This document shows positions 4,828 through 45,426 of a DNA stretch of 64,000 nt, piece after piece (position 1 is the stretch's first letter; each line of letters begins with the position of its first letter). Both the position numbers and the translations under genes were made by a program. The notes under the pieces were generated by a model that saw nothing but the letters and a program-made list of their open reading frames with translations, made no database searches and was not told where the DNA came from. This stretch comes from an uncultured Acidimicrobiia bacterium (lineage in GTDB: Bacteria; Actinomycetota; Acidimicrobiia; Spongiisociales; JAENVV01), in contig CAWKAG010000034.1 of assembly GCA_963847455.1 (NCBI GenBank), positions 126,604 through 190,603 of the forward strand, in the 5' to 3' direction.

Positions 4828-5898
4828 ATGGCAGGCACGGTTCACATCGTAGGGGCGAGGCCGAATTTTATGAAGGCCGGACCGGTGATCGCGGCATGTC
4901 GAGAGCGCGGGCTTGAGTCGCACCTGGTCCACACCGGCCAGCATTATGACGTACGGATGTCGCAGATCTTCTTTGATGAGCTTGGCTTGCCTGTGCCCGA
5001 CATGAACCTGGGCGTTGGGTCGGGAAGCCACGCTGAACAAACCGCTGCCCTGTTGACTGGACTCGAAGCGGTCTTTCTCAAACTTGAGCCTGATCGAATT
5101 GTTGTGTATGGCGATATCAACTCGACATTGGCCGGTGCGCTTGTGGCGTCCAAAATGCAAATTCCGATCGGGCACGTAGAGGCTGGTCTGAGAAGCTTCG
5201 ACCGATCTATGCCCGAGGAAGTCAACCGGGTGGTTACAGATGCCCTGTCAGATCTGCATTTTGTGACCAGCGAAGAAGCGGTTGGCAATCTTGCCAGGGA
5301 GGGAATTCAGAGCGAAGGGGTCCACTTCGTCGGGAACCCGATGATCGATTCCTTGCTCAGATTTCGTGATTCGTTCGATACCGACGGAGTGCGAACCAGG
5401 TATGGGATTCCCGAGAGATATGCAGTGGCGACGCTCCATCGTCCGGCCAACGTCGACGATCCGCTGACGGCAGCCCGTCTCGTTGCCGGACTGGTGCGAG
5501 CGGCAGCGATCTTGCCGGTCGTCATGCCGCTCCATCCCCGGGGCCGAGCGGTCCTCGAGGAGCAGGGCCTTGGTGTGGTCCCGAACCTGCAGGTCGTCGA
5601 ACCGCTTGGTTATGTCGATTTCATGTCGCTCGTCGCCGGGGCGAGCGTGGTGTTGACCGACTCGGGTGGTATCCAAGAGGAGACCACGATTCTCCGAGTC
5701 CCGTGTCTCACCATGCGGCCAAATACCGAGCGTCCGATCACTGTAGAGCTCGGAACAAATCGGCTGGTCGGATCTGACCCGGATCTTGTTGAGCAGGGGG
5801 TTCTAGACGCTCTGGAACCATCCCGGCCCGTGGATGTCCCGCCGTTGTGGGATGGTCGCGCCGGGCAGAGAATTGCCGACGTCTTGGCGGCAGTCTGA
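4828..5898 (+). CDS. wecB: UDP-N-acetylglucosamine 2-epimerase (non-hydrolysing)
   Basis: The N-terminus HIVGARPNFMKAGPVIAA, the motifs HTGQHYD and DSGGIQEE, and the length (356 aa) all match the WecB/MnaA family. Confidence 0.9.
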   Translation: MAGTVHIVGARPNFMKAGPVIAACRERGLESHLVHTGQHYDVRMSQIFFDELGLPVPDMNLGVGSGSHAEQTAALLTGLEAVFLKLEPDRIVVYGDINSTLAGALVASKMQIPIGHVEAGLRSFDRSMPEEVNRVVTDALSDLHFVTSEEAVGNLAREGIQSEGVHFVGNPMIDSLLRFRDSFDTDGVRTRYGIPERYAVATLHRPANVDDPLTAARLVAGLVRAAAILPVVMPLHPRGRAVLEEQGLGVVPNLQVVEPLGYVDFMSLVAGASVVLTDSGGIQEETTILRVPCLTMRPNTERPITVELGTNRLVGSDPDLVEQGVLDALEPSRPVDVPPLWDGRAGQRIADVLAAV

Positions 5899-5936: not shown

Positions 5937-6678
5937 CCTATTTGTTAGCGGCCTGCTGATAGGCGCCAACAACTTCAGCGGCTGGACCGAGGGCTCGGAT
6001 CTGGCCGTTTTCAAGCCAAAGCGCTCGATCGCAGAACTGGGCCACGCTAGCGAGGCTATGAGACACAAAAACGATGTGCCGGACCGCTCAAGGAGGTCTC
6101 GTCATCGCCTTGCATGCTCTTACCACGGAAGGATTCGTCGCCGACCGACAGGATCTCATCGAGCAACAGGATTTCTGGGTCGAGAGCCATGCCAACCGAG
6201 AAGGCGAGTCGCGAGAACATGCCCGTTGAGTACGTTTTGACGGGCCGCTCTATCGCGTCCTCCAGGCCGGCATAGCTGACGATGTCATCAAAGCGGCTGC
6301 TCGATATCTGCGCTTTTCGCATCCCGCCCGCAAGACCTCCGAGGTACACGTTCCTCCGACCGGACAGCTCTGGGTTGAATCCAACACCGAGCTGCAGCAG
6401 GGTCGACGTTGTGCCGTTCGAGCACCGCCTTACCTTCGTCCGGGCGTAGGGTGCCCGGCCAGTACTCGGAGCAGCGTGCTCTTCCCTGCCCCATTCCGAC
6501 CGATTACGCCGAAGGCCTCACCAGGGTCCACGCGAAACGAGACGTCCGTGAGGGCGAGTACCTCGGCGGTCTCGCGGTGGCGCAGGCGGCCCAGGCTTCG
6601 GCGGACGGTCGGCTTTCGGTCGACATATGGTCGGAAGCGGACGCTGACGTTTTCGACCAAGATGGCCGGACGGCTCAC
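5937..6678 (-). pseudogene. ABC transporter ATP-binding protein of the polysaccharide/teichoic-acid exporter type (Wzt/TagH/KpsT-like); at least 3 frame changes are needed to read it
   Basis: Walker A ([16 protein letters not shown]) is in frame 6430-6678. [12 protein letters not shown] is in a second frame. GFNPELSGRRNVYLGG, the signature YSTGMFSRL and Walker B (LLLDEILSVGD) are in frame 6056-6349. The C-terminus (CDRALWLENGQIRALGPAAEVVGAYQQAANK) is in a further frame ending at 5937. Confidence 0.8.
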
Positions 6679-7499
6679 AGGTGCCTCACAATCCGGCTCT
6701 CGTACTTGATGAACGTCCCAACGCCGACCAACCCGACGATGACAGCAGTTATCGCGGATGTAAGAAACAGGCCGGGCTCAAGGGGATCACCCGAGCAGGG
6801 CCGCTCGGTAGACACCAACGATGCTCCACATCGGGTTCAAGAGCATCACTTTCTGGATCGGTCTCGGACAGGTTCTCCATGAACTCGATCGGCCAGATGA
6901 TCGGGCTGAGATAGAGCCAGAGCCTGTTGATGTAGGGCAGGATGTTGTTGATGTCGCGAAACGGAACGGCCAGCCGTGCGGTGAGCGCACTCAGCCCGAG
7001 GTTGAAGACAAGATGGGCAGGAACGATGAAAAGGATGAGCCAGAAATGGTTGTTCAGGTTCGCCGAACCCTCCCGGAATCGCTACGGCGTAGAGGACGAC
7101 CAACGACGCGAGGAAACCCACGCCTGCTTCGATGAGGTTGGCGATGGGGAGAATCAGGCGGGGGAATTTGATGTTGGCAAGCAGTTTCGAGTTCTGGAGG
7201 ATGCTGTTGGCCCCTCCCGTCATGGCCTGACTGGTGAAATGGAAAACGAACATACCTGAGAGCAAGTAACTCAGGTCCCGATCTGACGCGAAGAGGATGC
7301 CAAAGACCAGGTAGTACACGAGGCCCAGGAGCAGTGGGTTGATCACCCACCAGAGGAGCCCCAACGCCGTTGAGGCGTTCCTTGCCTTCAGGTTGCCCAT
7401 CGCCAGATACCAGGCGAATTCGCGGCGGCTCCATAAGCTGCGAAAATAGGTGCTCGTCCGCGCCAAGCGCGATCGGCTTTGTGTGAGGAGGGCAGACAT
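6675..7499 (-). pseudogene. ABC-2 type polysaccharide exporter permease (Wzm/TagG/KpsM-like); at least 2 frame changes
   Basis: The N-terminal 150 aa match an ABC-2 permease (FRSLWSRREFAWYLAMGNLKARN...WWVINPLLL). The frame then degenerates after VLYAVAIPGG. The conserved C-terminus LLNPMWSIVGVYRAALLG and the final [38 protein letters not shown] lie in two other frames. The stop codon overlaps the ATPase GTG start. Confidence 0.7.
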
Positions 7500-8804: not shown

Positions 8805-8887
8805 GGTTGAACAGTGTAGGAACGGAATCGGCGTCGAACGGACTTCGCCTAGGTCAAGCCTTGTGTCTATTGTGCCGATGGGTATTC

Positions 8888-10057
8888 ATGGACGGACGAA
8901 CCAAACGACCGCACGCGCTGGTCGGCCTGTTTCTTGTCGTGCTGCTCGCCATACCACAGGCGGCGTTTGCGACAGGATCGGCTTATGCGCCTGCTGGACT
9001 CAACGAAGACAATGGCATCTACGAGATGTACTTCCCGGTCATCGGTGATGTGAACTACTCCGACTCGTTCGGAGCTCCCCGCTCGTCAGGTCGTACGCAT
9101 GAAGGCAACGACCTCATGGGCTACAAGATGCAGCCGGTTATTGCGGTCGCAGATGGAACCGTCGGTGGGATCTATCCGGAACCGGGCGGCTGGTTTCAGG
9201 GCGAGGGATCATGCTGCGCCATGACCCTTGAGCATGACGACGGCTGGTCGTCCTGGTACATCCATCTCAACAACGACACCGAAGACACTGACGACGGACT
9301 GGGATGGGGATTCGCCGAGGGCATTGCCCCCGGCGTACACGTGGTCGCTGGACAACTCATCGGGTGGATCGGCGATAGTGGGAACGCTGAAGCCTGTAAC
9401 TGCCCCCACGTGCACTTCGAGCTTCGCACCCCCGACGGAACCGCGATCGATCCGTACCCACACCTCCAGGCTGCCACCGTGCTGACGGAGGCCGGCGGGG
9501 ATCCAGTCGATCATGGGGTCTTTCGAGATGATGATGGATCGGTCCATGAGCTGAACATCAATGCCCTTGCCAACCGGGGGATCACCAAGGGGTGCAACCC
9601 GCCTGACAACGACCGGTTTTGCCCCACCCGCCAGCTGACCCGCGGCGAAATCGCCGCTTTCCTCCGGCGATTCCTAGCGCTTCCGGCCACGGAGGTCGAC
9701 TACTTCGTAGACGATGGAACGTCGATGTTCGAGGGCGACATCAACGCCCTTGCGGAGGCAGGTATCGCGTTCGGGTGTTCGGAGGAGGATTACTGTCCGA
9801 ACGCTCCACTGCGACGCGAAGAGATGGCGGAACTGTTGACCCGAACGTTCGGGTTCGCCGTGCCGGACGGCGCCGACAGCTTCAACGATGACGATGCCAG
9901 CCAGTTTGCGGGTTCTATCGAGGCGATTGCCGCGGTTGGTGTGACCCTGGGCTGCAACCCACCTGAGAATGATCGTTTCTGCCCGCAACGAACCCTGATC
10001 CGGGCTGAAATGGCCTCGTTCATGATGCGGGCCATCAACCTGCAGGAAACCGGTTAG
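8888..10057 (+). CDS. Secreted M23 (LytM-type) metallopeptidase with three C-terminal Cys-containing SLH-like repeats
   Basis: It has a signal peptide (MDGRTKRPHALVGLFLVVLLAIPQAAFA) and M23 motifs (HEGNDL, HVHFEL). It carries three repeats, F-x-DD-x-GS-x-HE-x-I-x-A-x-A-x-x-GI-x-GCNPP-x-NDRFCP-x-x-x-TRGE-AAFL. Confidence 0.8.
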   Translation: MDGRTKRPHALVGLFLVVLLAIPQAAFATGSAYAPAGLNEDNGIYEMYFPVIGDVNYSDSFGAPRSSGRTHEGNDLMGYKMQPVIAVADGTVGGIYPEPGGWFQGEGSCCAMTLEHDDGWSSWYIHLNNDTEDTDDGLGWGFAEGIAPGVHVVAGQLIGWIGDSGNAEACNCPHVHFELRTPDGTAIDPYPHLQAATVLTEAGGDPVDHGVFRDDDGSVHELNINALANRGITKGCNPPDNDRFCPTRQLTRGEIAAFLRRFLALPATEVDYFVDDGTSMFEGDINALAEAGIAFGCSEEDYCPNAPLRREEMAELLTRTFGFAVPDGADSFNDDDASQFAGSIEAIAAVGVTLGCNPPENDRFCPQRTLIRAEMASFMMRAINLQETG

Positions 10058-11476
10058 GTCGAGAGAGCTCTCGTAGAGCTTGATGAGCTTCTGGGACTCG
10101 ACCGTCCAGTTGTACTGACGGGCGGCAACCTTGGTTGCCTCCACGAACTGCTGTTTGTCAGCCAGGATGGTTCTGGCGGCCTCAGCGATGGCGGTCGGGT
10201 CGGCGGGATCGCAAGCGATGCCCACCTCCGTTTCTCGAACGACCCGTCCGATTTCGGGCGAGTCAGAACCGATCACCGGCACGTTGGCCATGATGTACTC
10301 AAAGAGTTTGTTCGGCAGGCAGGTGTAGTAGCTGATCGATGAGTTGATGATATTCGCCATCCCGATGTCGGCGGCGGCAGTCCAGAACAACAGTTCATGA
10401 TTGGGGATTGGCCCGAAAAACTTCACCCGATCGCCAATATTGCGCTTAACCACGTCGGCCTCTAGCGCTGGTCGGTGGTAGCCGTAGCCGACCACTACGA
10501 GAACGGCGTCATCGATCATCAGTGTCGCTTCCAGGGCCTGTTCGATGCCACGGTTCTCCTGGATCGAACCTTGATAAAGCAACAGCGGGACATCACGCGC
10601 GATCCCGAGTTCGGCCCTCAGGTCCCAGACCGGAACATGCTCGTCGTATTCGGGAACGTTTATGAGTTCGATCGAGAGTTCTGGAATCGATCCATAAAGC
10701 TTTTCAACGAATGGAATCCAATACGGGCTAGCCATGATGAGCGCATCAGCCTTGGGTAGTCCGCGCCGCTCATTCCACATCGCCCACTTACGCCACTTGC
10801 TGTCCATCCGGTTACGTTCGGTTGCCAACTCGTGCGAGTCGTAGACGAGCTTGGCTCCGGTGGCTTCGGCGCATTGCCAACCGATATAGAGGGTGTTGAG
10901 ATCGTGGGAGTGAAACACGTCTGGGTCGATCTCTAGTCCGATGGCGATCATCCGTTTGTTGATCGCCCACGTTTTGAGTGCCAGACCCTGACGTCCGAGT
11001 ACGGCTTTGACCGCTCGGAATCCGAAACGAGCGGTGTGCGCAAAGCCGCGCAAGATCGGGGTAGTTATCGCGGCCCATGTCTTGGTGGCGAGCGAGGCTT
11101 TCTCAACTGGGGTGGCGGTCGGACTTGGGGCGGCGGAGCGGTTGGCTCCCGGCGTGGCCGTCGAGGCCGGGACCACCGCGGATAGCTGGGCTTGTTTGGC
11201 GACGTCAACCGGTTCTCCGGTGAGTTTGGCGTGGCGGGTTTCGATGCTTCCTGCGTACCGACCGGCAACTTTGTTCAGGGTGGCCAGCCCAAAGTGCACC
11301 CGCGACACCCGGCGGACATGGATTCCATCCTGGGTGGTTTCCTGCTCGGCCGTTACCCCCGGCACGTGAATGGCGACGACGGTGACGTCGTGACCGGCCT
11401 CAATGAGGGTTCTGGCTTCTTTCGTGACCCTTGCGTCATATTCGAACGAGTTCTTCACGAACATGCAGATCTTCAT
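9674..11476 (-). CDS. Glycosyltransferase family 4 with a low-complexity insertion in the N-domain; the last ~125 codons of the ORF lie antisense within the M23 gene, so the true stop is uncertain
   Basis: The GT-B C-domain is LLLYQGSIQENRGIEQALEA...NKLFEYIMANVPVIGSD. The recognisable domain ends near 10060 (KLIKLYESS). The downstream ORF tail has no GT features and overlaps 8888-10057 on the opposite strand. Confidence 0.7.
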   Translation of the reverse strand: MKICMFVKNSFEYDARVTKEARTLIEAGHDVTVVAIHVPGVTAEQETTQDGIHVRRVSRVHFGLATLNKVAGRYAGSIETRHAKLTGEPVDVAKQAQLSAVVPASTATPGANRSAAPSPTATPVEKASLATKTWAAITTPILRGFAHTARFGFRAVKAVLGRQGLALKTWAINKRMIAIGLEIDPDVFHSHDLNTLYIGWQCAEATGAKLVYDSHELATERNRMDSKWRKWAMWNERRGLPKADALIMASPYWIPFVEKLYGSIPELSIELINVPEYDEHVPVWDLRAELGIARDVPLLLYQGSIQENRGIEQALEATLMIDDAVLVVVGYGYHRPALEADVVKRNIGDRVKFFGPIPNHELLFWTAAADIGMANIINSSISYYTCLPNKLFEYIMANVPVIGSDSPEIGRVVRETEVGIACDPADPTAIAEAARTILADKQQFVEATKVAARQYNWTVESQKLIKLYESSLDLTGFLQVDGPHHERGHFSPDQGSLRAETIILRWVAAQGHTNRGNRLDRTRKLAGIVIVEAVGAVRHGEPERSGQQFRHLFASQWSVRTVILLRTPERDTCLRKGVDVALEHRRSIVYEVVDLRGRKR

Positions 11477-12520
11477 GTCGTCGCCTCCCTGATCGTTTCC
11501 GCTGCCGACTTGAGACGGATCCGGAAGGTGGCGACAGCGTCGTCCATGGAAACAACGGCGGTGTCCTTGGTGGACTCCAGGTGGTTGACCATATCGTAGA
11601 GTCCTCCGAGATCGTTGGTGGCGAGAACGTAGTCCTCCATATTCACACTCTGGGCGAAATCTCGGACTTTCGGCCGGTACTCAAGGCCAATGAAGGGCGT
11701 GCCGGTCGCCGCAGCCAACACGGCGCCATGCAGCCGCTCGGACACAACGAGGCCCGATTCGGCCAGCAGTTGGACCGCCCCACTTTCGTCGGCGTACGCG
11801 GCCACGTACGGCAGTTCGGGATGTCCGGCCGCACGCATGATCTCGAATATCGGCCGGTCGTCGGCGGGGAAACACGACAGGAACCGGACGTCACGTCCAT
11901 CTGCGACAAGTCGACGAGTTAAGTCGGCGAGTGCCGAATACACGGCCTCGTCACTCTCGCCCCACAGCTCGCCGTTCGTCCGTGCCGGGCTGATGGTGAC
12001 CAGTCCCGGTATCTGTGGGCCCCGCATCGTCGGGTCGTTCAACCAGCAACGCTGGATCGCCAACGATTTCGAGATCGGTCTTGAGGCCCCAGTCGGTAAG
12101 GATCTGCGCCGAGGTCGGTCCTCGTACTCCGACGTAGGCGCAGGTCGATAGGAAATCAACCCACTGCTCGGCCGGCTCGGTCAAACCCCAGAAAGACGGG
12201 TTGGCGACCCCGGTGCCGAACACGGCTCGTTCGATCCTCGGGGAGTCTTTGGTCTGTAACCAATCCAGATAGACCTTGCGATTGATGAGGGTTCCACCGC
12301 CGAGCAGGAGCAGGCCGGTCGGATCGCCCGTCGTGGTGAAATCGCCCCAGTCCATCAGGTCGCGTCACCGCGTTGAGCATGATCTCGTCCCCGAAGTTCT
12401 CCTTCCCCACCCATCCGACGTAACGAATTTGGGGTCGGTCGGAATGTTGTGGATCAGGGCGAGTGGCTGTCTTGGGTGGTGTCTGGAATGACGACTTTGT
12501 GAGCCGCGCTTTGGCGAATC
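11473..12520 (-). pseudogene. Polysaccharide pyruvyl transferase (CsaB/PS_pyruv_trans-like) domain; it is read across 3 frames and is probably continuous with the upstream GT2 as a single fusion gene
   Basis: The N-terminal motif IRYVGWVGKENFGDEIML is at the 3' end of frame 12156-13121. LLLLGGGTLI...VGVRGPTSAQIL...GDPALL is in frame 11951-12355. ERLHGAVLAAATGTPFIGLEYRPKVRDF is in frame 11473-12159. The stop overlaps the start of the downstream GT4 (ATGA). Confidence 0.65.
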
Positions 12521-12724
12521 GACCGAGCGTGGGAATCGCCCTTACCGGATGGGCCTGGATCTCCGACACCAGCTTGCTCCGGTCGGATTCGTAGGCGGGA
12601 TAATCGATCGGCAGATCGTCAGCCGGGGCTCCACTCGGTAGAGCCACGAGCGCGTCGTTTAGATGGACGTTGTCGCCCCAACCCCGCACCGCCGTGAAAG
12701 CGCGTGTGGCCGTGTCGGCGCTAC

Positions 12725-14046
12725 TCAGCGCTTTGGCCCATTCTCTTGATCGCACCCAGGTGAAGAGCGGGAGACCAGACGGTGCCCAGGCTGCGTCGAT
12801 GGCTGCGGTGTCCGACTCGTTTTGGTAGGCAAGCGGTCCGTCGGGTCCCGGGACCTGATAGCCAATCGAAGCCGATGCCAAACGCGGTCGGCTATCGAAG
12901 CGCCTAACCAATCTACCCCCGAGCCGGTGGTCGGGGGTGGCCCATCCGTGCAAGGTGGCCACATATTGGCCACGAGCCTTGCCAAGGGCTTCCTCAAGGG
13001 TGCCGCCAGGGTTACTCGCGGGTCGGCTTCGTTGGCAGCCGCGAAACGGTCGAGGGCTTCGGATTCGCCTGCCCAGATGGTCTCGAAGTCGGTGAAGTTC
13101 TGGCGGCGCAGGACGGTCCACAGCGCCTCGATTCTCGCGTCAACCACCGGTGAGATCACCCAGGTGACTTTGGGGCGCACGTACAGGTGTCCCTCGACGG
13201 ATCTCCGATAGAAACGGTGCGGGATCCGGTTGATGATCTGGGCATCGTTTTCTTGTCTTGCCGCGTCGCGCCAGCCGGCTTCGTCATCGATCTGTGTCTG
13301 ATGAAACATGATGGCTTCGTCCTCGGGGACGATGAAGGCACCGGCTTCTGAGAGTCGCCAACCCAACTCTGTGTCTTCGCCACCCCAACGGTTGAATGAC
13401 TCGTCGAAGCCGCCAACTGCCAGGAATAGCTCTTTTGCACCGAGAAGTTGCTCGACACGAGCGCCCGGAAAGCTTCGTCGCCGAACCGCAATCTGGTCGA
13501 CCGTCGGTAGAACTTCAGCCGAAAATCCTCGGAGGCGGCGACGTCGACGCTGAACGGTATGCCGTCTGCGATGAGCGTGTCGACGGTGATCGCTGTCGTA
13601 TCGACATGGTGGCGGGAGCCGATAACCACGAGGTTGCTAGCCCGGTTGTGCCAGATGGCATGCCGGGTCAGGAGGTCGGGCGCCGGCATACAATCGGCGT
13701 CGAGGAAGACCAGAACCGATCCCGATGCGTGTTTGGCTCCCAGGTTTCTTGCCCGACCGGCCCCATACCCTTCGTGCTCCTGTCGAACGACCGTCACCGC
13801 CAGGTCGGTGCGCCCAGCAATCCCGGCCACTGCGACCCCAATGTCTTCATCCGATCCGTCATCGGCGACCACGACATCCCAGTTTCCCCGGTAATCCTGG
13901 TGGGCCAGAGCGGCGAGAGTCCTTTGGAGAAGCTCGGCCCGATTGAAGACGGGGATCACCACGGTGACCACTGGCAGGTCAGCGTCGCTCTCGACATTCA
14001 GGAGAGGGGCGTAGTCGTTCTCGGGACCGGTGAATGGGTGCATCAT
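12725..14046 (-). pseudogene. Glycosyltransferase family 2 domain, frameshifted near 13330; its frame then runs without a stop into the pyruvyltransferase N-terminus
   Basis: VTVVIPVFNRAELLQRTLAALAHQDY...VVADDGSDED and FLDADC are in frame 13156-14046. The GT2 C-terminal motif (GEDTELGWRLSEAGAFIVPEDEAIMFHQ) is in frame 12725-13366. Frame 12156-13121 then links through to the CsaB-like domain. Confidence 0.65.
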
Positions 14047-14341
14047 CAGGTGGCGCGGTAGCTCGCAGCTTTCAGATCGATTCGTATGAGTGTGCCCGAC
14101 TCGGTGATTTCGGCTTGCGGCTGGTGAGCAGCAAGGTAGGCATCAAGGGCTAGTCGGTCGGGCGCATGAGCATAGATGTAGCGCCTCGCCGCCAGGAGAA
14201 TAGCCTCCGGGGGAGTGGTGCCGCGAAACGCCACTGCCTCATAGGAGCCAGGACTTGGCGTCGGCGACGTTGTCCCACACTTCTCGTCCGGGCAGCGTCA
14301 ACGCCGTGCCAGGTGCGGTCAGCACTCGCTGCACCTCGACG

Positions 14342-15770
14342 TCACGGTCGATGAAGGACTGCAAGTGGGTCCTCTGCGGGAAGTCGATCGGCGGGCGGTG
14401 GAACCTTTTCGGCGGCTTTGAGACCGGCCATGAGTTCGTCGACCCGGTGGTCATAGAGGTGGGCGCCGGCCACATGGGACCGTGCTTGGTCGACGATCCG
14501 TTGCATGCGATCTTGATCGGCCAGGAGCGACTGGAACTGGTCGACGAAGTCAGTTTCGAGATGTAGGAAGTGTTCACCGGGCGTCAAGATTTGGTCTAAG
14601 CCAGGGATGGGCTGGGTCACCAACAGCGCTCCTGCCCCGATGGCTTCGAGCACGCGCATCGTTATGGGGAAGTGGCGCGTTCCGCCTTCGTTCGGGATGA
14701 TGCGGGCTTGCTCATAGAGCTCAGCCATGCGAGAAGCCGATACGCCCTCCTCAAAAGCAGTCGAAGGTAGGGCAGCTTCAAGGCTGGTCGTTAGGTGGCC
14801 CCGGAACGCGTAGGGCCCGCCTCCCCGAATGTAGGCGCCCACCATTGCGACGTCGTACCGGCGGGCGGCGATTGGCGTTGATCCATCGAAGAGGTCGGGT
14901 GCCATCCCGAACGGGAAGCGCTGGACCGGCTGGCGAAAGAAATGGGCGAGGTGCCACGAGTGCGCCAGGAGGATCAAGTCGGCCCGATATCGGTCGGCGA
15001 GTCGCAGGTTGGCAGCGAGGTGGTGTTCACCGTGATGCGCCCAGAACCCGATCGGGATGGGTGGCGTTGCGCCGCTTACCTGGATCTCCGGGTAGGGGCC
15101 TTCGACGAAGAGAATCGCGTTGGTGTCAGGCGCCAGGGTGTTGAAGTCGACGGCGTCGGTGTATAGGTCGACTGCGACCCCAGCGCGCTTGAGGGCCGCC
15201 TCAAGATACTTGCCGGGGTTGGAGTCGGTCTTGCGGTAGGCCAGAGCGATCCGGGTCCCCGCGTGGCGCCCGGGGGCGGGCCGGTATGGCTCCGGACTGG
15301 CTCTCGGGGGTGTGAAACGGTAATCCGGTCCGGATCGGTCGGCTCGCCGAGGGGGTTGACGGGGCCATGTCGATGAGATCCAGTGGTCCAGCTGGATTCC
15401 ATTGGGGGGCTCTCGCTACGAAGGCAGATGTCTGAGCTGCCGCTTCGGCAGCCACCTGAACCGCTGCTTCGGTGGTCGGCACAATCAATTCTGGATCGGA
15501 CTCGACCGTCCGCCGAACGAGAGCCGAATCGCGCCGTGAGTTGCGTGATATCTGCGTCTGAAGCTTCCTTAACAAACGATCGCGAAGCGAGGTTCCCGGC
15601 GGCTGGTTTGGGGATACGAGTGCCTCGTCGAAGGGCCGATCCAAGTCACCGTTTTGATGGCCGATTCGGACTAACGTGACGTCGTGTCCTGCGCGCGTCA
15701 GCTGTTCAATAAGGACCCGTGCTCGGGGGTCGTTTTGATAGTCGTTGACCGCAAGAACCGTGATCCGCAT
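14342..15770 (-). pseudogene. Second CgeB-like glycosyltransferase: an N-terminal Rossmann-like domain in one frame and DUF3880/Glyco_trans_1_2 in another
   Basis: The 5' frame (15201-15770) is MRITVLAVNDYQNDPRARVLIEQLTRAGHDVTLV. The 3' frame is open from about 15410 to 14342 (TRIALAYRKTDSNPGKYLEAALKRAGVAVDLY...RVLEAIGAGALLVTQP). It has no ATG/GTG/TTG start before 14977. The frames switch near 15250. Confidence 0.45.
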
Positions 15771-15824: not shown

Positions 15825-16857
15825 CTAGCTGAGTGCCCTGCGCAAGAACGCCGCGATCTGGCCTCTGGTCAGCGTTCCCTCGGGGCAGAAGCGATCGTTG
15901 CTCGGCGGGTTACATCCCTTGGTGATACCGGATACGCCCAGCGCGTTGATGTCCGTCTGATGCACCGAGTTGGTGTCGTCACCGAACTGATCGGCGACGT
16001 TGGTTGACAGGCCGAGGGCCCGCACGAAGAAACTTGCCATTTGCCCACGGGTGAGCGTCTGCTGTTCACAGAAGAAGGTGTTGGCGGGCGGATTACACCC
16101 GAGAGTGATACCGGCCTCAGCGACGGCGTTGATGTTCGCCTCGTGGGGTGATCCGTCGTCGTCGGTGAAGAAATCTGTGCCGGTGCTCGGAAGGTCAAGC
16201 GCCAATGCCATCATGGTCGCCATTTCACCACGGGTAACCGGCCGATTCGGGCAATACGAGCTGGAATCGCAGCCAAGGGCGATGCCACTCGAGACCAGCC
16301 AGGCGATGTCGTCGGCGAAGACGGTGTTGGATGCGTCGTTGGCGGAACTCAGGAGGGAGAGGCTGGTCAGTGGTTCGGCGTCGGCCGCACTGCCCCGGGC
16401 TTTCATGAAGATGACCGTGATGAAGGTCTGTCCGTTGCTCGGCGGTCTTGGTCGAGACCCCGATGTGGGACCAGTCGCCGAGGATGTTGGCCCGATGGCC
16501 CGGCGAGTCCATAAAGGCATTGTGGAGGACCGGGATGTTCGGGCCCATCCCGACGTTTTCGCCAAGGCTCGACCATCCACTGCTTACGATCTTGCTGAGG
16601 TCGGCCGTATGGAAGATGGTTCCCCTGGCGACCTGACGGGCAGTCTGGACCGATGCATCGTCCTCGAGATCCCAGTGACGGGTGAGACCGGGCAGGCCGT
16701 TCGCCGCTCGTTCTCCGTTGATGAGGTCGATCATGTCGCCGTCCTGAATCGGGGATGCGACCGCAGGGAGTGGTGTCGGGATGATCGAAAGCGCGAGGAA
16801 GGCGGTCAGCGCAACCGCCGTCAGGTAGATTCCCCTACGCCCAAAGGAAAACTTCAT
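15825..16857 (-). pseudogene. Secreted CAP/SCP (YkwD-like) domain protein with four C-terminal SLH-like repeats; one frame change near 16430
   Basis: The signal peptide and CAP motifs (HWDLEDDASVQTARQ, GENVGMGPN, SPGHRANIL) are in frame 16225-16857. Four GCNPP/GCDSS-type repeats are in frame 15825-16580. Confidence 0.65.
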
Positions 16858-16933
16858 AGAGTGGTTATCGGTCCGGCGGCCGGAATACTTAAGGCTCAGG
16901 TAGGAACAATCTCACCGATAGTGTTGACCATCA

Positions 16934-18580
16934 TGTTTCGATTTACGACAGGAATCACGACTGCTCTAGCGATCCTTGCCTTGACGGCACTTGTGGCAGG
17001 TGCCGTCCCGCCCGGTGGCACGTTCATCGATGACGACGGCAACGTCCACGAGGCCAACATTGAGGCGCTCGCGTGCTGCTGGCATTACTCGCGGATGTAA
17101 TCCGCCAGTTGGTGATCGTTTCTGTCCCGATGGGACCGTGACCCGGGGCGAAATGGCGGCATTCTTGTCCCGGGCGCTCGGGCTGACCGAGCGAGCGTCT
17201 GATCCGTTCGGCGATGATGACGGTACGTTGTTTGAGGCCGACATCGAACGGATTGCGGCGGCCGGTATCACTCGCGGTTGTAATCCGCCCGCCAACGACC
17301 AGTTTTGTCCGACCCGGCCGGTCACGAGAGCCGAGATGGCAGCGTTTCTGGTGCGCGCCTATGGCTATAGCGACCGGGCCGACGGACGGTTCACGGACGA
17401 CGACGGCTCCATCTTCGAAGCAGATATTGAGCGCCTGGCAGCGGCCGGCGTCACCTTGGGATGTAACCCACCGGTGAACGATCGCTACTGCCCGTCCAAG
17501 CGGGTGAGGCGAGATGAAATGGCTAGCTTCCTCGTCCGGGCCGAAGGCTTGACCCCGATCCCGGTCCCGCCCCGGTTGACGCCAACGTTGGACGCCCTCC
17601 CGTTTTCTTTCGACGCACCGATCCAGGTGACCGGCCCGCCAGGGGACGGTCGGGTTTTTGTGGTCGAACGATCTGGCAAGGTCCGGGTCATCAGCGACGG
17701 CAAACTGCTTACCGACCCTTTGATAGATCTAACGGGCATGGTTATCCAGGGCGGCGAACGGGGACTGCTTGGCCTGGCTTTTCACCCCGACTTCGCTACC
17801 AACGGACTGGTTTACGTCTCGTACTCCGCGGAGACCTCGTCACTCTCGGCCGACCACGCTTCGGTGGTGGAAGAGTTCAAGGTGTCCGGTGACCAGGTCG
17901 GTCCCAGCTCGGGTCGGGTTGTTTTTACGACCTTGCAGCCTTATGCCAATCACAACGGCGGCATGATCATGTTCGGTCCCGACGGGTACCTGTATCTGGG
18001 TCTTGGCGACGGCGGCTCGGCTTTTGATCCCGACCGAAACGGTCAGAACGCCAAGACTGCCCTTGGCTCGATGGTCCGCATCGACACGGTCAACACCACG
18101 TCGAGTAATTGGGCGATCGGCCTGCGCAACCCCTGGCGGTGGTGGATTGATGGATCCGACATGTATATCGCCGATGTCGGACAAGGTTCGCGCGAGGAGA
18201 TCTCGGTGGTCTCGACGACGGATACCGGTTTGAATCTCGGCTGGGTGCGATTCGAGGGCAGCCAGTGCACCGGGCTCGGCAGCTGCAGCACCAGCGGCCT
18301 GACGTTTCCCGTTTTGGAATATACCCACGCTGAGGGTTGCTCCATCACCGGAGGGGTGGTGTACCGGGGTGATCTGACCCAATTGAATGGACACTTCCTC
18401 TACGGCGATTACTGCTCTGGCTGGATTCGCTCGATCCGGGTCGTCGGAGGGTCAGTTGTTGCCGAGGGTGACCTCTCTACGCTCGGGTCAAGCTTTGGAC
18501 TCGTGTCTTTTGGTCAGGACGGTCTTGGGAATACTTACGTCATCCGCGGCGGAACTGTCTACGAACTCGTCGGGCGATGA
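16934..18580 (+). pseudogene. Secreted protein with three SLH-like repeats fused to a glucose/sorbosone-dehydrogenase-like (PQQ-dependent) beta-propeller; one frame change near 17075
   Basis: The signal peptide MFRFTTGITTALAILALTALVAGA and the first half-repeat are in the frame ending at 17100. The remainder is in frame 16991-18580, with GSDH motifs (GDGRVFVVERSGKVRVI, GGERGLLGLAFHPDF, YANHNGGMIMFGPDGYLYLGLGDGGS). Confidence 0.7.
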
Positions 18581-18654
18581 TGCCGACATTCGGATTGATG
18601 GCAATAAGTTTGTACAGTGACTCTGTCCTGGGCGGGCGGAATCCGACCTGAGGA

Positions 18655-20548
18655 GTTGTGTTGAAACACAGAAGGATCCTTCTCCTTTTTGTCATGGTCG
18701 TGAGCACGCTGGTTCCGGCGATTCCTGCGCAAGCTCAGACCTATCACCCCAACGGTGACGTTCACGGGTGGTGGGTACGGGCACGCCATCGGGATGAGTC
18801 AGTACGGCGCCAATGCCATGGCTTCCGAGGGTATGACCACGGCAGACATCATCAACTACTACTACACAAACGTTGCGACCGTGAGCCACACCGCTCTCTA
18901 CGAATCGCCACATCCGCTGAGTTCTGCAAACCCGAACATCTGGGTCGGGCTGGCTCAGGATGTGAACTCGATCACGTTTTCGGTCCCGGCTGACGCCAGG
19001 CGGGCCGGTAGATCTGTGTCAAGCGAACGACGGCGGCTTGCCGTGCCCCCGCGAGGAGGCAATCCCTCAGCCAGGTGATGTGTGGGAGTTGCGACGTGCC
19101 GAAGGGGTGACCAACAAATGTCGAATTCCGTCGGATCAGCCCGACCGCGACAGACGTTTACGACAGGAGACTGCCGAGCCAGCGCCACGCTGGGGTGGGT
19201 CGGGGCAGTGCCGAATACATCAATGTGGACGGTACGGATTACCGGCATGGAACGTTGCGCATGCGTCAGGGGACGTCCAGGTAACAACCGGCCAATTCCA
19301 CGTTTCGCTCGAGCTTCCGATCGAGGAGTACTTGCTCGGATTGCGTGAGGTGCCGTTGAGTTGGCCAAACGCGGCACTGGAGGCCCAGGTTGTCACCGGC
19401 CGCACGTACGCCCTTGAGAAATTCAGCCGTTTCTACGACGCGACTCGACAACCGGGAACTACGACTTCATCAAGAACTTCCGGCGGTCCTATTGCTACTG
19501 CCATGTCCTTGACAGCACCCTTGATCAGAACTACCGAGGCATGGACAACGAGCAACTCAACGGCGACTCGTATCCGTCTTGGGTTCTGGCGATCGCGAGT
19601 ACGTCAGTCCGACGTGATTGCCTATCAAGGCGCGTCTGATCCAGGCGTTCTATTCGTCGTCGACGGGTGGCAACACTGAGGATAGCGAAGACGTCTTTGT
19701 GGCGGCGCTTCCGTACTCCAGGTCGGTTCCCGATCCCTGGTCATTGACCTCGGCGAATCCGAAGGCAGCGTGGACGAACACTGTCACAGCGACGAAAGAT
19801 CGCTTCGGTGTACGGATTCTCTGAGATCAGCAATGTCACGTTGGTGAACCCGGCTCCGAATGCGTATATGACCATCACCGGCACCAAGAACGGATCCCAG
19901 GTCACAGAGAGCGTGAGCATCGCCAAGAAGTACGCACAGTTGGGGCTGTCGGCCCCGTCGGTCTCGGGGTTGTCCTATGACCCTTACGGTGGCGAGAGTC
20001 CGTATGCGTTTACCGATATCAGTAACTCGGTTCATTGGCAGGACATCAACGAGATTGCCGAGCGAGGCATAACGCTCGGATGCAACCCGCCGTCCAACAC
20101 ATTGTTCTGTCCAACCCGTGAGGTGACCAGGGGACAGATGGCCGCGTTCCTGACTCGCACGCTCGGGTTGGTCGAGCGGGCACCAGACCCGTTCACCGAC
20201 GACGACGGCACGTTGTTTGAGGCAGACATCGAACGGATCGCCGCCGCTGGTATAACCCTGGGCTGTAATCCGCCGGCCAACGACCGCTTCTGTCCCGATC
20301 GTTTTGTTACCCGCGCCCAGATGGCGGCGTTTCTCAGCCGGGCGTACGAACTTGTTGAGCGGGCCCCTGATCCGTTCGTCGACGATGACGGCTTGATCTT
20401 CGAAGCGGACATCGAACGGTTGGCCGCCGCCGGTATCACGCTTGGCTGTAATCCTCCCGCCAATGACCGGTTCTGTCCCAACAACATCGTCCTTCGACAA
20501 CAGATGGCGTCATTCCTGATCAGAGCCATCAATTACGAGGGCGGCTAG
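18655..20548 (+). pseudogene. SpoIID/LytB-family domain protein with three C-terminal SLH-like repeats; at least 3 frame changes and an unusual motif order
   Basis: It has a signal peptide (MLKHRRILLLFVMVVSTLVPAIPAQA) followed by GGGYGHAIGMSQYGA...INYYY (18755-18900). EEYLLGLREVPLSWPNAALEAQVVTGRTYAL lies at 19320-19440 and FYSSSTGGNTEDSEDVF...PYSRSVPDPW at 19640-19740. The frame from 19808 carries three GCNPP repeats. Confidence 0.5.
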
Positions 20549-20573: not shown

Positions 20574-21860
20574 GTGGACAACCCTGTTGAGTTTTTTGAA
20601 GGAAATAGTTGGACTTGTGGCGTCGTCGGCCTCGGATACGTTGGTCTGCCGCTAGCTCTGACCGCCGTTTCCAGAGGCCATGCGGCGATAGGCTTCGATA
20701 CGTCAGAAGACCGGGTCCGTCGCCTCGGTGCCGCCTCATCGCCGATCGACGACGTCTCAGATGCGGATCTGGCGGCTGCGTTAGAAGCCGGCCTGTCGGT
20801 AACGGGCGATGCCGCCGATCTCAAGCTTGCCGACGCCATTTTTATCTGTGTGCCTTCGCCGCTCGGCCGGAATCGCCAACCGGACATGTCCTACATTCAA
20901 ACTGCGGCGACCACTGTGGCGAGGATCGCCCGACCCGGGCAGCTGATTTCGCTCGAATCGACCACCTATCCGGGTACCACCGATGACATCCTGGTAACCG
21001 CGCTCGCCGATGTCGGCTTGGAAGTTGATCGGGACGTCTACGTCGCCTTCTCTCCGGAACGAGTGTCGCCAGGCGACGAACTCAAAACTGCCGAGATCCC
21101 CAAGGTCGTCGGCGGAGTCAGCGCTTTGTCGACCGCGGTGGCAACGGCGGCCTACTCCAAGTTGGTGCCCAACGTGCACGCCGTTTCTGACGCCAAGACG
21201 GCGGAGATGGCCAAGCTGCTCGAAAACACCTACCGGGCTGTCAACATCGGCCTGATCAACGAGATGGCCCAGCTCGCTCACGAGATCGACATCGATATCT
21301 GGGAAGTCATCGAGGCGGCCGCGACGAAGCCATTCGGGTTTCAAGCGTTCTTTCCGGGCCCGGGAGTGGGTGGGCACTGTATCCCGCTCGACCCTCAGTT
21401 CCTGGCCTGGCGCGCCAAGGAAGCGAACTTCACCACCCGTTTCATCGATACGGCCGAGCAAGTCAACGAAGGCATGCCGGCTTGGACCGCCCGACGAGTC
21501 GGGTCGATGCTGAACAAACGTGGGTTGCCGATTTTTGGGACCCGCATCCTCGGTGTGGGGATTTCCTACAAGCCGGACATCGCCGACGATCGTGAATCGG
21601 CGTCAGCCCGGGTCCTGGTTGAGTTGAGGAATCAGGGCGCCGAAATCGAGGTGTACGATCCGCTGGTGCCACCGGACCGGATTCGTCGGCACGGGTTTGA
21701 ACCGTCCACATCCTTCGACGGCTACTCGGCCGCCTTGATCTTGACCGACCACCAGGGCATCGATTACAACGCCATCTCGGCTTCGGTGCCGGTCGTCTTT
21801 GACACCCGGAATGCCTATCGGCGGCGCGGTATCGAGGTCGACAACGTAGAAGTGCTGTGA
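20574..21860 (+). CDS. Nucleotide-sugar dehydrogenase (UDP-glucose/GDP-mannose dehydrogenase family); a UDP-ManNAc or UDP-GlcNAc 6-dehydrogenase is plausible
   Basis: The Rossmann motif VVGLGYVGLP, the catalytic region GFQAFFPGPGVGGHCIPLDP and the length (428 aa) fit the family. It lies in a WecB-containing cluster. Confidence 0.85.
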   Translation: MDNPVEFFEGNSWTCGVVGLGYVGLPLALTAVSRGHAAIGFDTSEDRVRRLGAASSPIDDVSDADLAAALEAGLSVTGDAADLKLADAIFICVPSPLGRNRQPDMSYIQTAATTVARIARPGQLISLESTTYPGTTDDILVTALADVGLEVDRDVYVAFSPERVSPGDELKTAEIPKVVGGVSALSTAVATAAYSKLVPNVHAVSDAKTAEMAKLLENTYRAVNIGLINEMAQLAHEIDIDIWEVIEAAATKPFGFQAFFPGPGVGGHCIPLDPQFLAWRAKEANFTTRFIDTAEQVNEGMPAWTARRVGSMLNKRGLPIFGTRILGVGISYKPDIADDRESASARVLVELRNQGAEIEVYDPLVPPDRIRRHGFEPSTSFDGYSAALILTDHQGIDYNAISASVPVVFDTRNAYRRRGIEVDNVEVL

Positions 21861-29168: not shown

Positions 29169-29609
29169 ATGGTTGTCCCTGGTCTCACACCCTCAATCGA
29201 GTTTGCGCTACTTGCTGACGCTGTACAGGCAGTGGGCGGCAAGCTTTTTGTCCTGGGCGGCGGTTGGGACACGATTTGGGTGAGATCCTTCCCGGCTCGG
29301 CACCACACCATGGCCATCGGCACCAGAATCAGGATCCCATGGTCGTCGGAGACGCAGACGTTCGAACTAACCGTCCAGTTGGTCGACGAAGACGGCCAAC
29401 CGATCTTTGACACGATTCGTCACTCGCTAACCGTTGCTCCGCCGAAGGGCGTTCCTGACGGGTTCGAGCACGGAGTGGTCCGAGCTTTCACCTTCAACAA
29501 CGTCCCCTTTCAAAAACCCGGGGAGTACTCCTTCGTGATGACGGTTGACGAAGTGGAAACCGGGCGCCTACGGTTCTCGGTGCGGGAGCGTCGCCAGGAG
29601 ACAACCTGA
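29169..29609 (+). CDS. Hypothetical protein
   Basis: It is a 146-aa ORF with good coding character and no recognisable motif. Confidence 0.3.
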   Translation: MVVPGLTPSIEFALLADAVQAVGGKLFVLGGGWDTIWVRSFPARHHTMAIGTRIRIPWSSETQTFELTVQLVDEDGQPIFDTIRHSLTVAPPKGVPDGFEHGVVRAFTFNNVPFQKPGEYSFVMTVDEVETGRLRFSVRERRQETT

Positions 29610-44070: not shown

Positions 44071-44125
44071 TCATGTTGGGGGCGCCGCCCTTTGGCAGCC
44101 GGATGGGGTCTAAACCGGGTATCGG

Positions 44126-45331: not shown

Positions 45332-45426
45332 CCTATATCCCCTTATTTTCCTACCCGCCTGATCACGCTATCAGGGCCGACGGGCGAGCGCAATGGAATT
45401 TCGACCCTTTCGGTAGTGTGCATCTG

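Follow-up and report, generated by a model that had tools for sequence, protein, structure and literature searches.

The window, a 64-kb stretch of DNA from an uncultured Acidimicrobiia bacterium, carries on its minus strand, between positions 11473 and 14046, five overlapping open reading frames (ORFs) in three frames (13156-14046, 12725-13366, 12156-13121, 11951-12355, and 11473-12159). Pfam searches placed a Glycos_transf_2 domain in the first of these, 13156-14046 (E = 2e-25), and a PS_pyruv_trans domain split over the last two (E = 2e-8 and 4e-9, covering profile positions 65-165 and 181-278, respectively). Joining of the pieces yielded a protein of 857 amino acids that scores 90.6 bits against PF00535 and 75.3 bits against PF04230, above both Pfam cut-offs (23.3 and 25.3 bits, respectively). 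These minus-strand matches bear out the original prediction of a GT2 domain and a PS_pyruv_trans domain running through successive frames, and all of the peptide strings it quoted were found in the ORF translations; the frame changes are indeed present and, more exactly, DNA alignment resolved them into four discrete 1-nt indels, correction of which gives a gene of approximately 857 codons. The stop codon TAA of a glycosyltransferase gene upstream overlaps the ATG of the fusion gene by one base at 14046, and the predicted ATGA coupling to a GT4 gene downstream was confirmed, positions 11473-11476 being common to both ORFs.

The upstream gene (14046-15770, minus strand) encodes a GT-B glycosyltransferase (Glyco_trans_1_2) that is at least 529 amino acids long in the relative L001, with indels in the window copy near 15292, 14380, and 14260. 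The downstream GT4 glycosyltransferase (10052-11476, minus strand) has 474 amino acids in L001; its ORF in the window runs on to 9674 (9674-11476) through a convergent gene because a +1 indel near 10069 removes the stop. Around these lie four genes for the proteins that had been described as SLH-like, a designation supported by scores of 26-40 bits against the Pfam SLH cut-off of 20.8: an intact M23 peptidase (8807-10057, plus strand), a CAP-domain protein (15825-16857, minus strand; frameshift near 16440), a protein with a signal peptide and a GSDH beta-propeller (16861-18580, plus strand; frameshift near 17070), and a SpoIID-like protein (18558-20548, plus strand; approximately 660 amino acids in relatives, with several frameshifts at 18.6-19.8 kb). 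Each carries three SLH repeats with a TR[GA][EQ]-type motif, and the strict repeat pattern (GC..FCP..TR[GA][EQ]) matches only at 9.5-20.3 kb of the window. The nucleotide-sugar dehydrogenase anticipated for this island is present (20574-21860, plus strand; TIGR03026, 367 bits), its best named match being UDP-ManNAc dehydrogenase, below cut-off, and it occurs in 38 of 79 loci. WecB, the non-hydrolysing UDP-GlcNAc 2-epimerase, proved to be a true equivalog (4828-5898, plus strand; intact; 321 bits against a cut-off of 210). The proposed Wzm/Wzt exporter was recovered as remnants of a Wzm-like permease and a Wzt-like ATPase (5950-7499, minus strand), both frameshifted (approximately 7050, 6430, and 6090).

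The location of the two domains in different ORFs of the raw window would be expected if stop codons divided the GT2 and pyruvyltransferase into two genes and the apparent fusion were an artefact of reading. However, the family yielded 391 matches, more than 100 of them full-length with 40-88% identity and all with both PF00535 and PF04230, and over 100 intact, single-ORF proteins of 830-930 amino acids, including those of L001 and L002, match the joined 857-residue protein from one end to the other. Moreover, 76 of 79 loci have no frame switch in the fusion gene. The separate-gene reading is therefore extremely improbable and was rejected, as the intact orthologues already refute it. Given this end-to-end alignment and the confirmation of the family in 244 stretches of GTDB species-representative genomes, the predicted fusion is real and has a large intact family in related genomes. 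Of the 78 loci inspected, almost all come from Acidimicrobiia metagenome-assembled genomes (MAGs), and the relatives with a name are all Acidimicrobiia or Actinomycetota MAGs.

The four indels were placed by DNA alignment to the intact relatives L001 and L002, which are 82-85% identical to the window copy in DNA (L002 is cut at its 5' end). On the minus strand, the window sequence is one base short of L001 at 13436 (GTGCCAAAAG versus GTGC-AAAAG; approximate to a few bases, at a blastx junction supported by approximately 80 homologues) and one base short of both relatives at 13003/13004, and it has one base more than both at 12363 (GTCAC-CGACC versus GTGACGCGACC) and at 12004 (CCGGG-CTCG versus CCGGGACTGG). 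They are part of a series of approximately 20 indels between 1.3 and 22.5 kb, all of them +/-1, and their distribution would suit a true pseudogene and a recent inactivation, by real frameshift mutations, of the entire island of SLH and wall-glycan genes (approximately 1.3-22.5 kb) in an organism that is losing this envelope system: the frameshifts fall in the majority of the genes of a single island with a coherent function, they do not lie in long homopolymers, and the housekeeping genes at 23-64 kb, including those for GltB (1484 amino acids), SufB/C/D, sigma-70, fumarase, and ABC exporters, are, one possible exception aside, complete as judged by Pfam coverage. A density of approximately 20 indels in 21 kb of the envelope island versus approximately one in 41 kb elsewhere is not predicted by a uniform error process, and it would fit such an inactivation as well. 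Against this, only +/-1 indels were seen, with no nonsense codons or larger deletions and no premature stop in the window fusion, and one probable frameshift lies outside the island, in a LON_substr_bdg gene near 29.95 kb. The window copy retains 101 of 101 invariant and 79 of 80 near-invariant columns, and a Tajima relative-rate test gave 25 versus 30 lineage-specific changes, and thus no acceleration of the amino-acid rate; its dN/dS against L001 (0.082) is the same as that of the intact M23-SLH gene (0.085). With the usual indel-to-substitution ratio of approximately 1:10 assumed, four indels predict approximately 30 substitutions, approximately five of them at conserved positions, and none were seen. 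Finally, across 79 related public loci, frameshifts in these genes are confined to long-read MAGs (7 of 15 "MFD" long-read contigs versus 0 of 64 others). Assembly error is hence more likely than decay of the gene, which we regard as unlikely, and there is good reason to think that the four breaks are errors of the assembly consensus; the organism therefore probably has an intact gene.

The protein encoded by this single gene is predicted to be a cytoplasmic enzyme of three modules, the first two of which, its N-terminal two thirds, resemble the E. coli K4 chondroitin polymerase (K4CP). Module 1 (residues 1-290; 13178-14046 by tblastn mapping, minus strand; containing the first indel) comprises the catalytic GT-A (GT2) domain. 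It retains DDGS, DxD (D116-A-D118), and RWGGEDTELGWR, scores 34 bits against PF02709, and forms most of a 214-bit match of residues 26-367 to K4CP (PDB 2z86, 2z87) that extends through domain A1 to the beginning of A2 and pairs DCD with DAD. Its motifs predict an active inverting glycosyltransferase most like A1 of K4CP, the HexNAc (GalNAc)-adding domain. Module 2 (residues 291-535; 12444-13177, minus strand; containing the second indel) had been taken for a linker of approximately 200 residues. The K4CP match, an AF2 model (pLDDT 88), and Foldseek, which returned K4CP as its top hit (503 aligned columns, TM 0.66), indicate instead a folded, degenerate second GT-A domain, homologous to the start of K4CP A2, followed by a helical linker (helices at 489-517). 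DDGS and DxD are both absent from it, with LHGWA at the DxD position; having lost the nucleotide-sugar and metal motifs, module 2 most likely acts as a scaffold or a body that binds the acceptor.

Module 3 (residues 535-857; 11476-12446, minus strand; containing the third and fourth indels) is the PS_pyruv_trans domain, with a GT-B-like fold modelled by AF2 at a pLDDT of 94.6. Its family-invariant residues include YxGWxGxxNxGDE, LGGGTLINR, VGxRGPxS, ERLH, and EYxPK. In CsaB of P. alvei, phosphoenolpyruvate (PEP) is bound by R148, R306/H308, and K328 (PMC10435577), and these are matched by the invariant R642, R771-L772-H773, and K793 of module 3, the H-to-K spacing being 20 in both; the RLH also aligns directly to that of Pvg1p (5ax7). 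Module 3 is accordingly predicted to be a PEP-dependent ketal-pyruvyltransferase of the PS_pyruv_trans family. The original prediction called it CsaB-like, and CsaB is the best curated model (TIGR03609), but at 85 bits against an equivalog cut-off of 213 the domain does not qualify as a true CsaB; consequently, its target sugar need not be ManNAc. Motif alignment suggests a lack of conservation at the positions of Y14 and F16, the acceptor residues of CsaB, which leaves ManNAc unproven as the pyruvylated sugar. The WcaK model gave no match to the window protein and approximately 20 bits in two relatives, and a fold search with the C-terminal domain returned generic GT-B matches, Pvg1p ranking only 27th. 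The nearest stand-alone relatives of module 3 score 66-85 bits with TIGR03609, also below cut-off, and the two that bear a taxon name come from MAGs of Longimicrobiales and Nitrospirota, both groups being assigned to the Gracilicutes. A survey reports CsaB/SLH to be practically absent from Gracilicutes (bioRxiv 10.1101/2021.05.31.446380).

Gene order was compared among 28 fully flanked loci, i.e., those with at least 8 kb of flank on both sides. Of the 28, 27 encode several SLH-domain proteins no more than 10 kb from the fusion, the M23-SLH peptidase likewise (27/28), and in 25 the upstream glycosyltransferase gene directly precedes the fusion; neither the window nor any of the flanks contains a second pyruvyltransferase. 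This synteny supports a part for the fusion in the synthesis of a pyruvylated wall glycan to which SLH domains bind. SLH triplets with a TRAE-type arginine have bound pyruvylated polymers in every case studied (PMC6801904, PMC6030368). The original prediction went further and saw here the complete logic of pyruvylation of a secondary cell wall polymer (SCWP) and SLH anchoring. The linkage of fusion and SLH genes stands; the CsaB assignment does not, the window showed no ManNAc transferase of the TagA/WecG type, and only 3 of 79 loci have WecB, and only 3-4 Wzm/Wzt, within 10 kb of the fusion.

The best overall explanation, to which we assign a probability of roughly 0.6, is that the glycosyltransferase-pyruvyltransferase fusion makes the pyruvylated wall glycan that serves as the SLH ligand; the analysis shows which domains the protein contains, that the family is intact, which catalytic motifs are kept, and that synteny with SLH genes is conserved, whereas the donor and acceptor sugars, the pyruvylation, and the SLH binding are what we infer. 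Translationally coupled to the upstream GT-B and downstream GT4 enzymes, the fusion would act jointly with them to elongate a wall glycan carried on polyprenyl diphosphate. Module 1 would add a beta-linked sugar, probably a HexNAc, and module 3 would pyruvylate the same sugar while still lipid-linked, as CsaB of P. alvei acts on a lipid-linked repeat (PMC6030368). The acidic, pyruvylated polymer would then be exported and attached to the wall, where the enzymes encoded nearby would bind it as a ligand through their triple-SLH modules. Alternatively, a functional fusion might make a pyruvylated exopolysaccharide (EPS), capsule, or teichuronic-acid-like polymer unrelated to SLH anchoring, the SLH genes being adjacent through a general envelope gene neighbourhood. 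The sub-threshold CsaB scores of both module 3 and its nearest stand-alone relatives, the two named ones from Longimicrobiales and Nitrospirota, are compatible with this, as are the resemblance of the glycosyltransferase domain to glycosaminoglycan and EPS enzymes (K4CP; EpsD, 138 bits), the conservation in the cluster of a uronic-acid-forming dehydrogenase, and the EPS-type polyprenyl glycosylphosphotransferase (TIGR03025) that is the priming enzyme of the window. However, SLH linkage in 27 of 28 loci, among relatives only 40-50% identical and with varied gene orders, exceeds a chance neighbourhood, and together with the lack of another pyruvyltransferase in the cluster and the consistent binding behaviour of TRAE-type triplets, it renders this alternative rather doubtful.

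Compared with known enzymes, the fusion shares with K4CP (KfoC), a bifunctional glycosaminoglycan polymerase of two GT-A domains, a predicted structure that superposes over approximately 500 residues and the DxD and WGGED-type motifs of the first domain. Unlike K4CP, it has an extra C-terminal pyruvyltransferase and a second GT-A domain devoid of DDGS and DxD, and so a two-site polymerase is ruled out; over the whole structure, the identity is no higher than 22-23%. With CsaB, which ketal-pyruvylates secondary cell wall polymers in Bacillus anthracis, Paenibacillus alvei, and Thermus thermophilus, module 3 has in common the PF04230 family, the PEP-site Arg, R-L-H, and Lys, the N-terminal GxxGxxNxGDE motif, and genes for triple-SLH-repeat proteins alongside. 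In contrast to these stand-alone enzymes of approximately 370-400 amino acids, it is the C-terminal part of a larger protein, aligns well only at profile positions 124-293, appears to lack the Y14 and F16 equivalents, has no TagA/TagO adjoining, and falls in a separate clade, whose stand-alone members with a taxon name belong to Longimicrobiales and Nitrospirota MAGs. The GT-B-like two-lobed fold is shared with Pvg1p, the yeast galactose pyruvyltransferase, and with the stand-alone bacterial enzymes WcaK, WcfO, GumL, and ExoV, but similarity to Pvg1p and WcaK is very low (22 bits to Pvg1p), and all of these enzymes serve EPS, capsule, or N-glycan pathways without a fused glycosyltransferase.

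At the level of the system, the closest parallel is the SLH/CsaB surface display of Firmicutes and diderm Terrabacteria, in which a PF04230 enzyme likewise co-occurs with several triple-SLH proteins, here tightly clustered, and a UDP-GlcNAc 2-epimerase is likewise present in the window. A few Actinobacteria had already been noted to possess SLH/CsaB systems (survey, bioRxiv 10.1101/2021.05.31.446380). The present system differs in its host, a member of the Actinomycetota (class Acidimicrobiia), in the variant SLH repeats with a Cys pair (GCNPP.ND.FCP), in an SLH cargo of enzymes (M23, CAP, GSDH, SpoIID) with no obvious S-layer protein or OmpM, and in the fusion of glycosyltransferase and pyruvyltransferase, and it is a variant of that known system.

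On the minus strand between 14046 and 11473, the window holds five overlapping open reading frames (ORFs) in three frames, and three-frame translation gives a protein-like reading that is continuous across the interval while hopping from frame to frame. In Pfam searches the first ORF matches Glycos_transf_2 (E 2e-25), and PS_pyruv_trans is split between the fourth and fifth (E 2e-8 and 4e-9; fragments of 35 and 37 bits). When joined, the five pieces form a protein of 857 aa that scores 90.6 bits against PF00535 (gathering score 23.3) over residues 28-149, with further matches to PF10111 and PF13641, and 75.3 bits against PF04230 (gathering score 25.3) over residues 580-790, equivalent to profile positions 64-278 of 280; Glyco_transf_7C adds 34 bits. 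The original prediction of a GT2 and a PS_pyruv_trans domain on this stretch is therefore borne out by the ORFs, the translation and the Pfam matches, with both profiles that it had named for a check exceeding their cut-offs. Its ATGA coupling to the next GT4 gene also holds, bases 11473-11476 being common to the fusion stop and the GT4 start, and at the other end the TAA of the upstream glycosyltransferase overlaps the fusion ATG at 14046.

Searches in other genomes show that the fusion is genuine and that proteins of this type are widespread. The joined protein has 391 relatives; the best 120 of these are almost all full length (830-930 aa), and the full-length proteins among them are 40-88% identical to it at 95-100% coverage, with both domains in all. 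An alignment of 35 sequences contains 101 invariant columns spread across an N-terminal GT-A module (module 1, residues 1-290), a central module (module 2, 291-535) and a C-terminal pyruvyltransferase module (module 3, 535-857). When genomes representing the GTDB species were scanned, one per species, 244 stretches were confirmed to encode a relative; of the 78 loci kept, nearly all come from Acidimicrobiia MAGs, and a few bins carry other labels. The genome of the window itself was absent from the 80 best contig hits of that scan, and look-ups of two window proteins by exact sequence gave no record for either. Databases annotate members of the family only in general terms, as 'glycosyltransferase' or as 'GT2 family glycosyltransferase/polysaccharide pyruvyl transferase WcaK-like'. 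The closest relative, P0001 (88% identical), lies on an ENA contig, L001, which is syntenic with window 15633-8788 at a DNA identity of 82.5% and encodes, all intact and in this order, the upstream glycosyltransferase (at least 529 aa), the fusion (854 aa), the GT4 (474 aa) and a convergent M23-SLH peptidase (389 aa). Programmed frameshifting was considered and rejected because the protein is encoded in one frame in 76 of 79 relatives.

Alignment with L001 resolves the breaks in the window fusion into four uncompensated 1-nt indels, -1 near 13436, -1 near 13004, +1 near 12363 and +1 near 12004, the last three of which were confirmed at the same positions with L002, an 85% identical locus from a different study. 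The upstream glycosyltransferase has indels near 15292, 14380 and 14260, and in the GT4 that follows the fusion a +1 near 10069 abolishes the stop codon, which yields a run-on ORF of 600 aa. This indel is the sole cause of an overlap of about 380 nt (9674-10057) between the GT4 ORF and the convergent M23-SLH gene; on L001 the 474-aa GT4 overlaps that gene by 4 nt. Codon-usage frame segmentation of the window was too noisy at 60% GC for frameshift calls, and hence the junctions were mapped by homology, using blastx against the ORFs of the 78 related loci together with the Pfam coverage of fragments. About 20 frameshifts were located in this manner between 1270 and 22540, affecting most genes of this cell-envelope island: four in the fusion, three in the upstream glycosyltransferase, two in Wzt, several in SpoIID-SLH, and others in the acyltransferase, Wzm, the CAP-SLH and SLH-GSDH proteins, the GT4 that follows the fusion and a second GT4. 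All of the island lesions are +/-1 indels, with zero nonsense codons. At 23-64 kb, by contrast, the large genes cover their Pfam profiles in full (GltB of 1484 aa, SufB/D/C, SufS, sigma-70, fumarase, two ABC exporters, M17 peptidase and ThiF). The sole candidate outside the island is a probable frameshift near 29950 in a LON_substr_bdg gene at 29609-30225 (+), where ORF 29609-30073 covers positions 2-122 of 200 in PF02190 and the remainder falls in ORF 29887-30225. The housekeeping two thirds (23000-64000) thus carry at most one frameshift vs about 20 in 1270-22540, so the density of error or mutation shifts sharply along one contig. Within this housekeeping part, the Suf genes are split, with SufB followed by sigma-70 and UDG genes and then SufD and SufC at 42649-48482, and 6 kb beyond these, at 54583-56531, come a second ABC ATPase and a SufS-like class-V aminotransferase. 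An ORF of 492 aa at 45343-46821 (-), without a Pfam match and antisense to UDG (45322-46098) and SufD (46133-47437), is most likely spurious, a long ORF of the kind that arises in GC-rich DNA.

Such clustering of lesions in the island, together with the absence of long homopolymers at the indel sites, is what would favour a recent and genuine inactivation of the island that left the window copy a pseudogene. Beyond its indels, however, the window fusion shows no decay: it retains 101 of 101 invariant positions and 79 of the 80 that are nearly invariant, the remaining one being altered in P0001 as well, and a Tajima relative-rate test against P0001 with a related protein, P0002, as outgroup counted 25 vs 30 lineage-specific changes. 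The dN/dS values relative to L001 are 0.082 for the fusion, 0.098 and 0.082 for two other frameshifted genes and 0.085 for the intact M23-SLH gene. Counts of in-frame stops by blastx against stop-to-stop ORFs were swamped by antisense and out-of-frame matches and were consequently replaced by codon projection on the L001 alignment, which revealed no premature stop codons in the four genes. With the usual mutation spectrum, four real indels imply some tens of substitutions, several of them expected at conserved positions and with an occasional nonsense codon; no such accompanying changes were found in the window fusion. Furthermore, among the 79 related loci, non-repeat genes of the cluster are frameshifted in 7 of the 15 contigs that belong to the 'MFD' series of MAGs (L058, L059, L075, L013, L025, L030 and L067) vs none of 64 others. 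We take this series to be Nanopore assemblies, with contig names of Flye style, and the confinement of cluster frameshifts in public data to its contigs indicates indel errors specific to an assembly type. Given the lack of decay, the lack of accompanying substitutions and the MFD-only distribution, the indels in the window are probably local consensus errors of the assembly, and a pseudogene is unlikely. An unpolished or low-coverage stretch would fit as the cause of the concentration of these errors in the island, and in practical terms the disrupted frames are best taken as a local fault in assembly quality and not as biology.

The region between the two recognized domains, described originally as a linker of about 200 aa, did not prove to be one. 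A family profile matches the Escherichia coli K4 chondroitin polymerase, K4CP (2z86/2z87), with 214 bits over residues 26-367, spanning the first GT-A domain (DDGS, DCD aligned to DAD, and the WGGED motif) and extending into the start of the second, and an AlphaFold model of the fusion (mean pLDDT 88.1) superposes on K4CP over about 500 columns with a TM of 0.66. On the basis of this profile match and superposition, the region is read as a second GT-A domain, at residues about 291-470 in the model, followed by two helices (489-517). In module 1, D62-D63-G64-S65 and D116-x-D118 are invariant in the 35 sequences and align to the DDGS and DCD of K4CP. The second GT-A domain has the fold without a DDGS or DxD of its own, these being replaced by aGES... 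and LHGWA in the window and by VHGAA, LNGHG and similar sequences in other members, replacements that are unconserved across the family. Lacking both motifs, this domain is not a second catalytic site, and a two-site polymerase of the K4CP type is thereby ruled out. At L069 and L070 there are paralogues, 35-37% identical, of the body formed by the two N-terminal GT-A domains; no pyruvyltransferase domain follows them, though each contig is long enough for one, and the K4CP-like body thus exists unfused too in Acidimicrobiia.

The C-terminal 320 residues are modelled with a pLDDT of 94.6 as a two-lobed, Rossmann-like (GT-B-like) domain. A Foldseek search of the PDB with this domain returned generic GT-B enzymes, with yeast Pvg1p at rank 27 (E 8e-6, TM 0.53), a result that is consistent with a pyruvyltransferase and does not discriminate. 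By phmmer, a single C-terminal sequence had no matches in the PDB, and a 16-sequence profile was needed to reach Pvg1p; the invariant ERLH of the family then aligns directly on the RLH of Pvg1p. Mutagenesis of Paenibacillus alvei CsaB established R148, H308 and K328 as PEP-binding and docking implicated R306, the four being equivalent to R217, H339, K361 and R337 of Pvg1p, respectively (PMC10435577). The fusion family has invariant residues to correspond with each, namely R642 (in VGVRGP), R771-L772-H773 and K793, with a His-to-Lys spacing of 20 as in CsaB; RLH is the part aligned directly, to Pvg1p, R642 and K793 being equated to the CsaB residues by motif and spacing.

The proposed CsaB-like identity fared less well. 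The best NCBIfam pyruvyltransferase model is indeed that of CsaB (TIGR03609), but the fusion reaches 85.4 bits, mainly at profile positions 124-293, vs a curated cut-off of 213.1, and is therefore not a CsaB equivalog. Scores of 80-91 bits were obtained with three intact orthologues and of 66-85 bits with the ten nearest relatives tested (eight stand-alone proteins of 340-408 aa and two of 682 and 730 aa), while the WcaK model had no match to the window protein or P0001 and gave about 20 bits in two further orthologues. In an exhaustive search, a profile of the domain matched 644 cluster representatives at E 1e-30 or better; ranking below the fusions are many stand-alone proteins of 340-410 aa that match the whole domain (within the range P0154-P0263), those with names coming from MAGs of Longimicrobiales and Nitrospirota and being called 'polysaccharide pyruvyl transferase family protein'. 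With all tested fusions and relatives under the CsaB cut-off, the domain is assigned by sequence to an uncharacterised PF04230 clade of its own, which is akin to CsaB and lies outside it. Other multi-domain architectures also include the domain, both at about 700 aa (P0155, P0157, P0164, P0172, P0218 and P0229; 677-730 aa) and at 1521 aa (P0131). With respect to the acceptor, the N-terminus of P. alvei CsaB, read from a primer (PMC6030368), is MASKATRIVLSGYYGF, and its Y14 and F16, which concern the beta-ManNAc-GlcNAc-PP-lipid acceptor, line up by the GxxNxGDE motif only with V/T/L/S and K/R/H/Y in the family. The equivalents of these residues thus appear not to be conserved, which cautions against assuming a ManNAc acceptor.

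The neighbours of the fusion had been called SLH-like, and four window proteins do exceed the Pfam SLH threshold (PF00395, 20.8 bits): an M23 peptidase-SLH at 8807-10057 (31.8 bits), a CAP-linked SLH protein at 15825-16580 (39.4 bits), a GSDH propeller-SLH at 16991-18580 (26.0 bits) and an SLH protein at 19808-20548 (39.9 bits), each with three repeats in translation that carry TRGE, TRGQ, TRAE or TRAQ. The SLH variant includes two conserved cysteines, GI[TA]xGC(NPPxND)xFCP....TR[GA][EQ][MI]A, three per protein, with motif starts at 9578, 15929, 17081, 17264, 20066 and 20249, and may represent an Acidimicrobiia-typical subtype stabilised by a disulfide. As cargo these proteins carry enzyme domains (M23, CAP, GSDH propeller and SpoIID), none of them being an evident S-layer protein. 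In the 28 related loci with at least 8 kb of flank on both sides, the upstream glycosyltransferase directly precedes the fusion in 25, and 27 have, within 10 kb, the M23-SLH peptidase, several SLH proteins and in many cases SpoIID; a nucleotide-sugar dehydrogenase, GT4 and GT2 are also common nearby, and gene orders vary between subgroups. No second pyruvyltransferase was found in any flank of the related loci or in the window. The WecB claimed for the window is a true equivalog (WecB/MnaA, TIGR00236, 4828-5898; 321.4 vs 210.15 bits); among the 79 loci, just 3 have WecB close to the fusion and just 3-4 have Wzm/Wzt there. The frameshifted Wzt-like gene yields ABC_tran fragments at profile positions 1-37 and 81-135 in two frames, and the permease-like ORF at 6846-7499, from a frameshifted gene, has no Pfam-level match at E 0.01 or better and matches ORFs adjoining Wzt in L014, L045 and L066.

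Both the family and its gene cluster are well supported, and the architecture suggests that pyruvylation is physically coupled to the glycosyl transfer that creates its substrate. At a probability that we place at roughly 45%, the family would be a bifunctional 'add-and-cap' enzyme of a kind not yet described, a K4CP-derived glycosyltransferase with one active site joined to a non-CsaB pyruvyltransferase, making the pyruvylated ligand for Cys-SLH domains throughout Acidimicrobiia. In the simplest model, module 1 would add a beta-linked sugar to a lipid-linked wall glycan, probably a HexNAc by analogy with the A1 domain of K4CP, a GalNAc-transferase domain; module 3 would at once place a PEP-derived pyruvate ketal on that sugar, flanking GT-B enzymes would make the rest of the glycan, and the exported polymer would serve as ligand of the cluster's SLH triplets. 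If the add-and-cap reading is true, a different pyruvyltransferase lineage was independently recruited into SLH anchoring, with an acceptor that is possibly not ManNAc.

To our knowledge, Firmicutes, Thermus and cyanobacteria are the only groups in which the anchoring of SLH proteins to pyruvylated wall polymers has been elucidated. Acidimicrobiia are abundant in soil, freshwater and marine samples, and this whole class carries a conserved cluster, set among four to six SLH-tagged wall enzymes, whose only pyruvyltransferase is fused to a glycosyltransferase. For the Actinomycetota there has so far been just the remark in a survey, which used PF04230 as its marker of CsaB, that SLH/CsaB is kept in 'a few examples within Actinobacteria' (bioRxiv 10.1101/2021.05.31.446380). 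The similarity network in a review of pyruvylation took in proteins of 250-600 aa only (PMC6801904), and the fusions would hence have been missed. A literature search found no paper on a glycosyltransferase-pyruvyltransferase fusion (including under PF04230 and PS_pyruv_trans) or on SLH or S-layer homology in Acidimicrobiia. The fusion is a concrete, clonable candidate for the ligand-forming step. Judged from sequence, with its function predicted, it represents a known type of system, SLH and a pyruvylated polymer, in a new form, that of a fused enzyme. CsaB of P. alvei acts on the lipid-linked disaccharide that TagA makes, adding pyruvate to it (PMC6030368). In the fusion the pyruvyltransferase is joined to a predicted glycosyltransferase, and DDGS and DxD occur in module 1 only.
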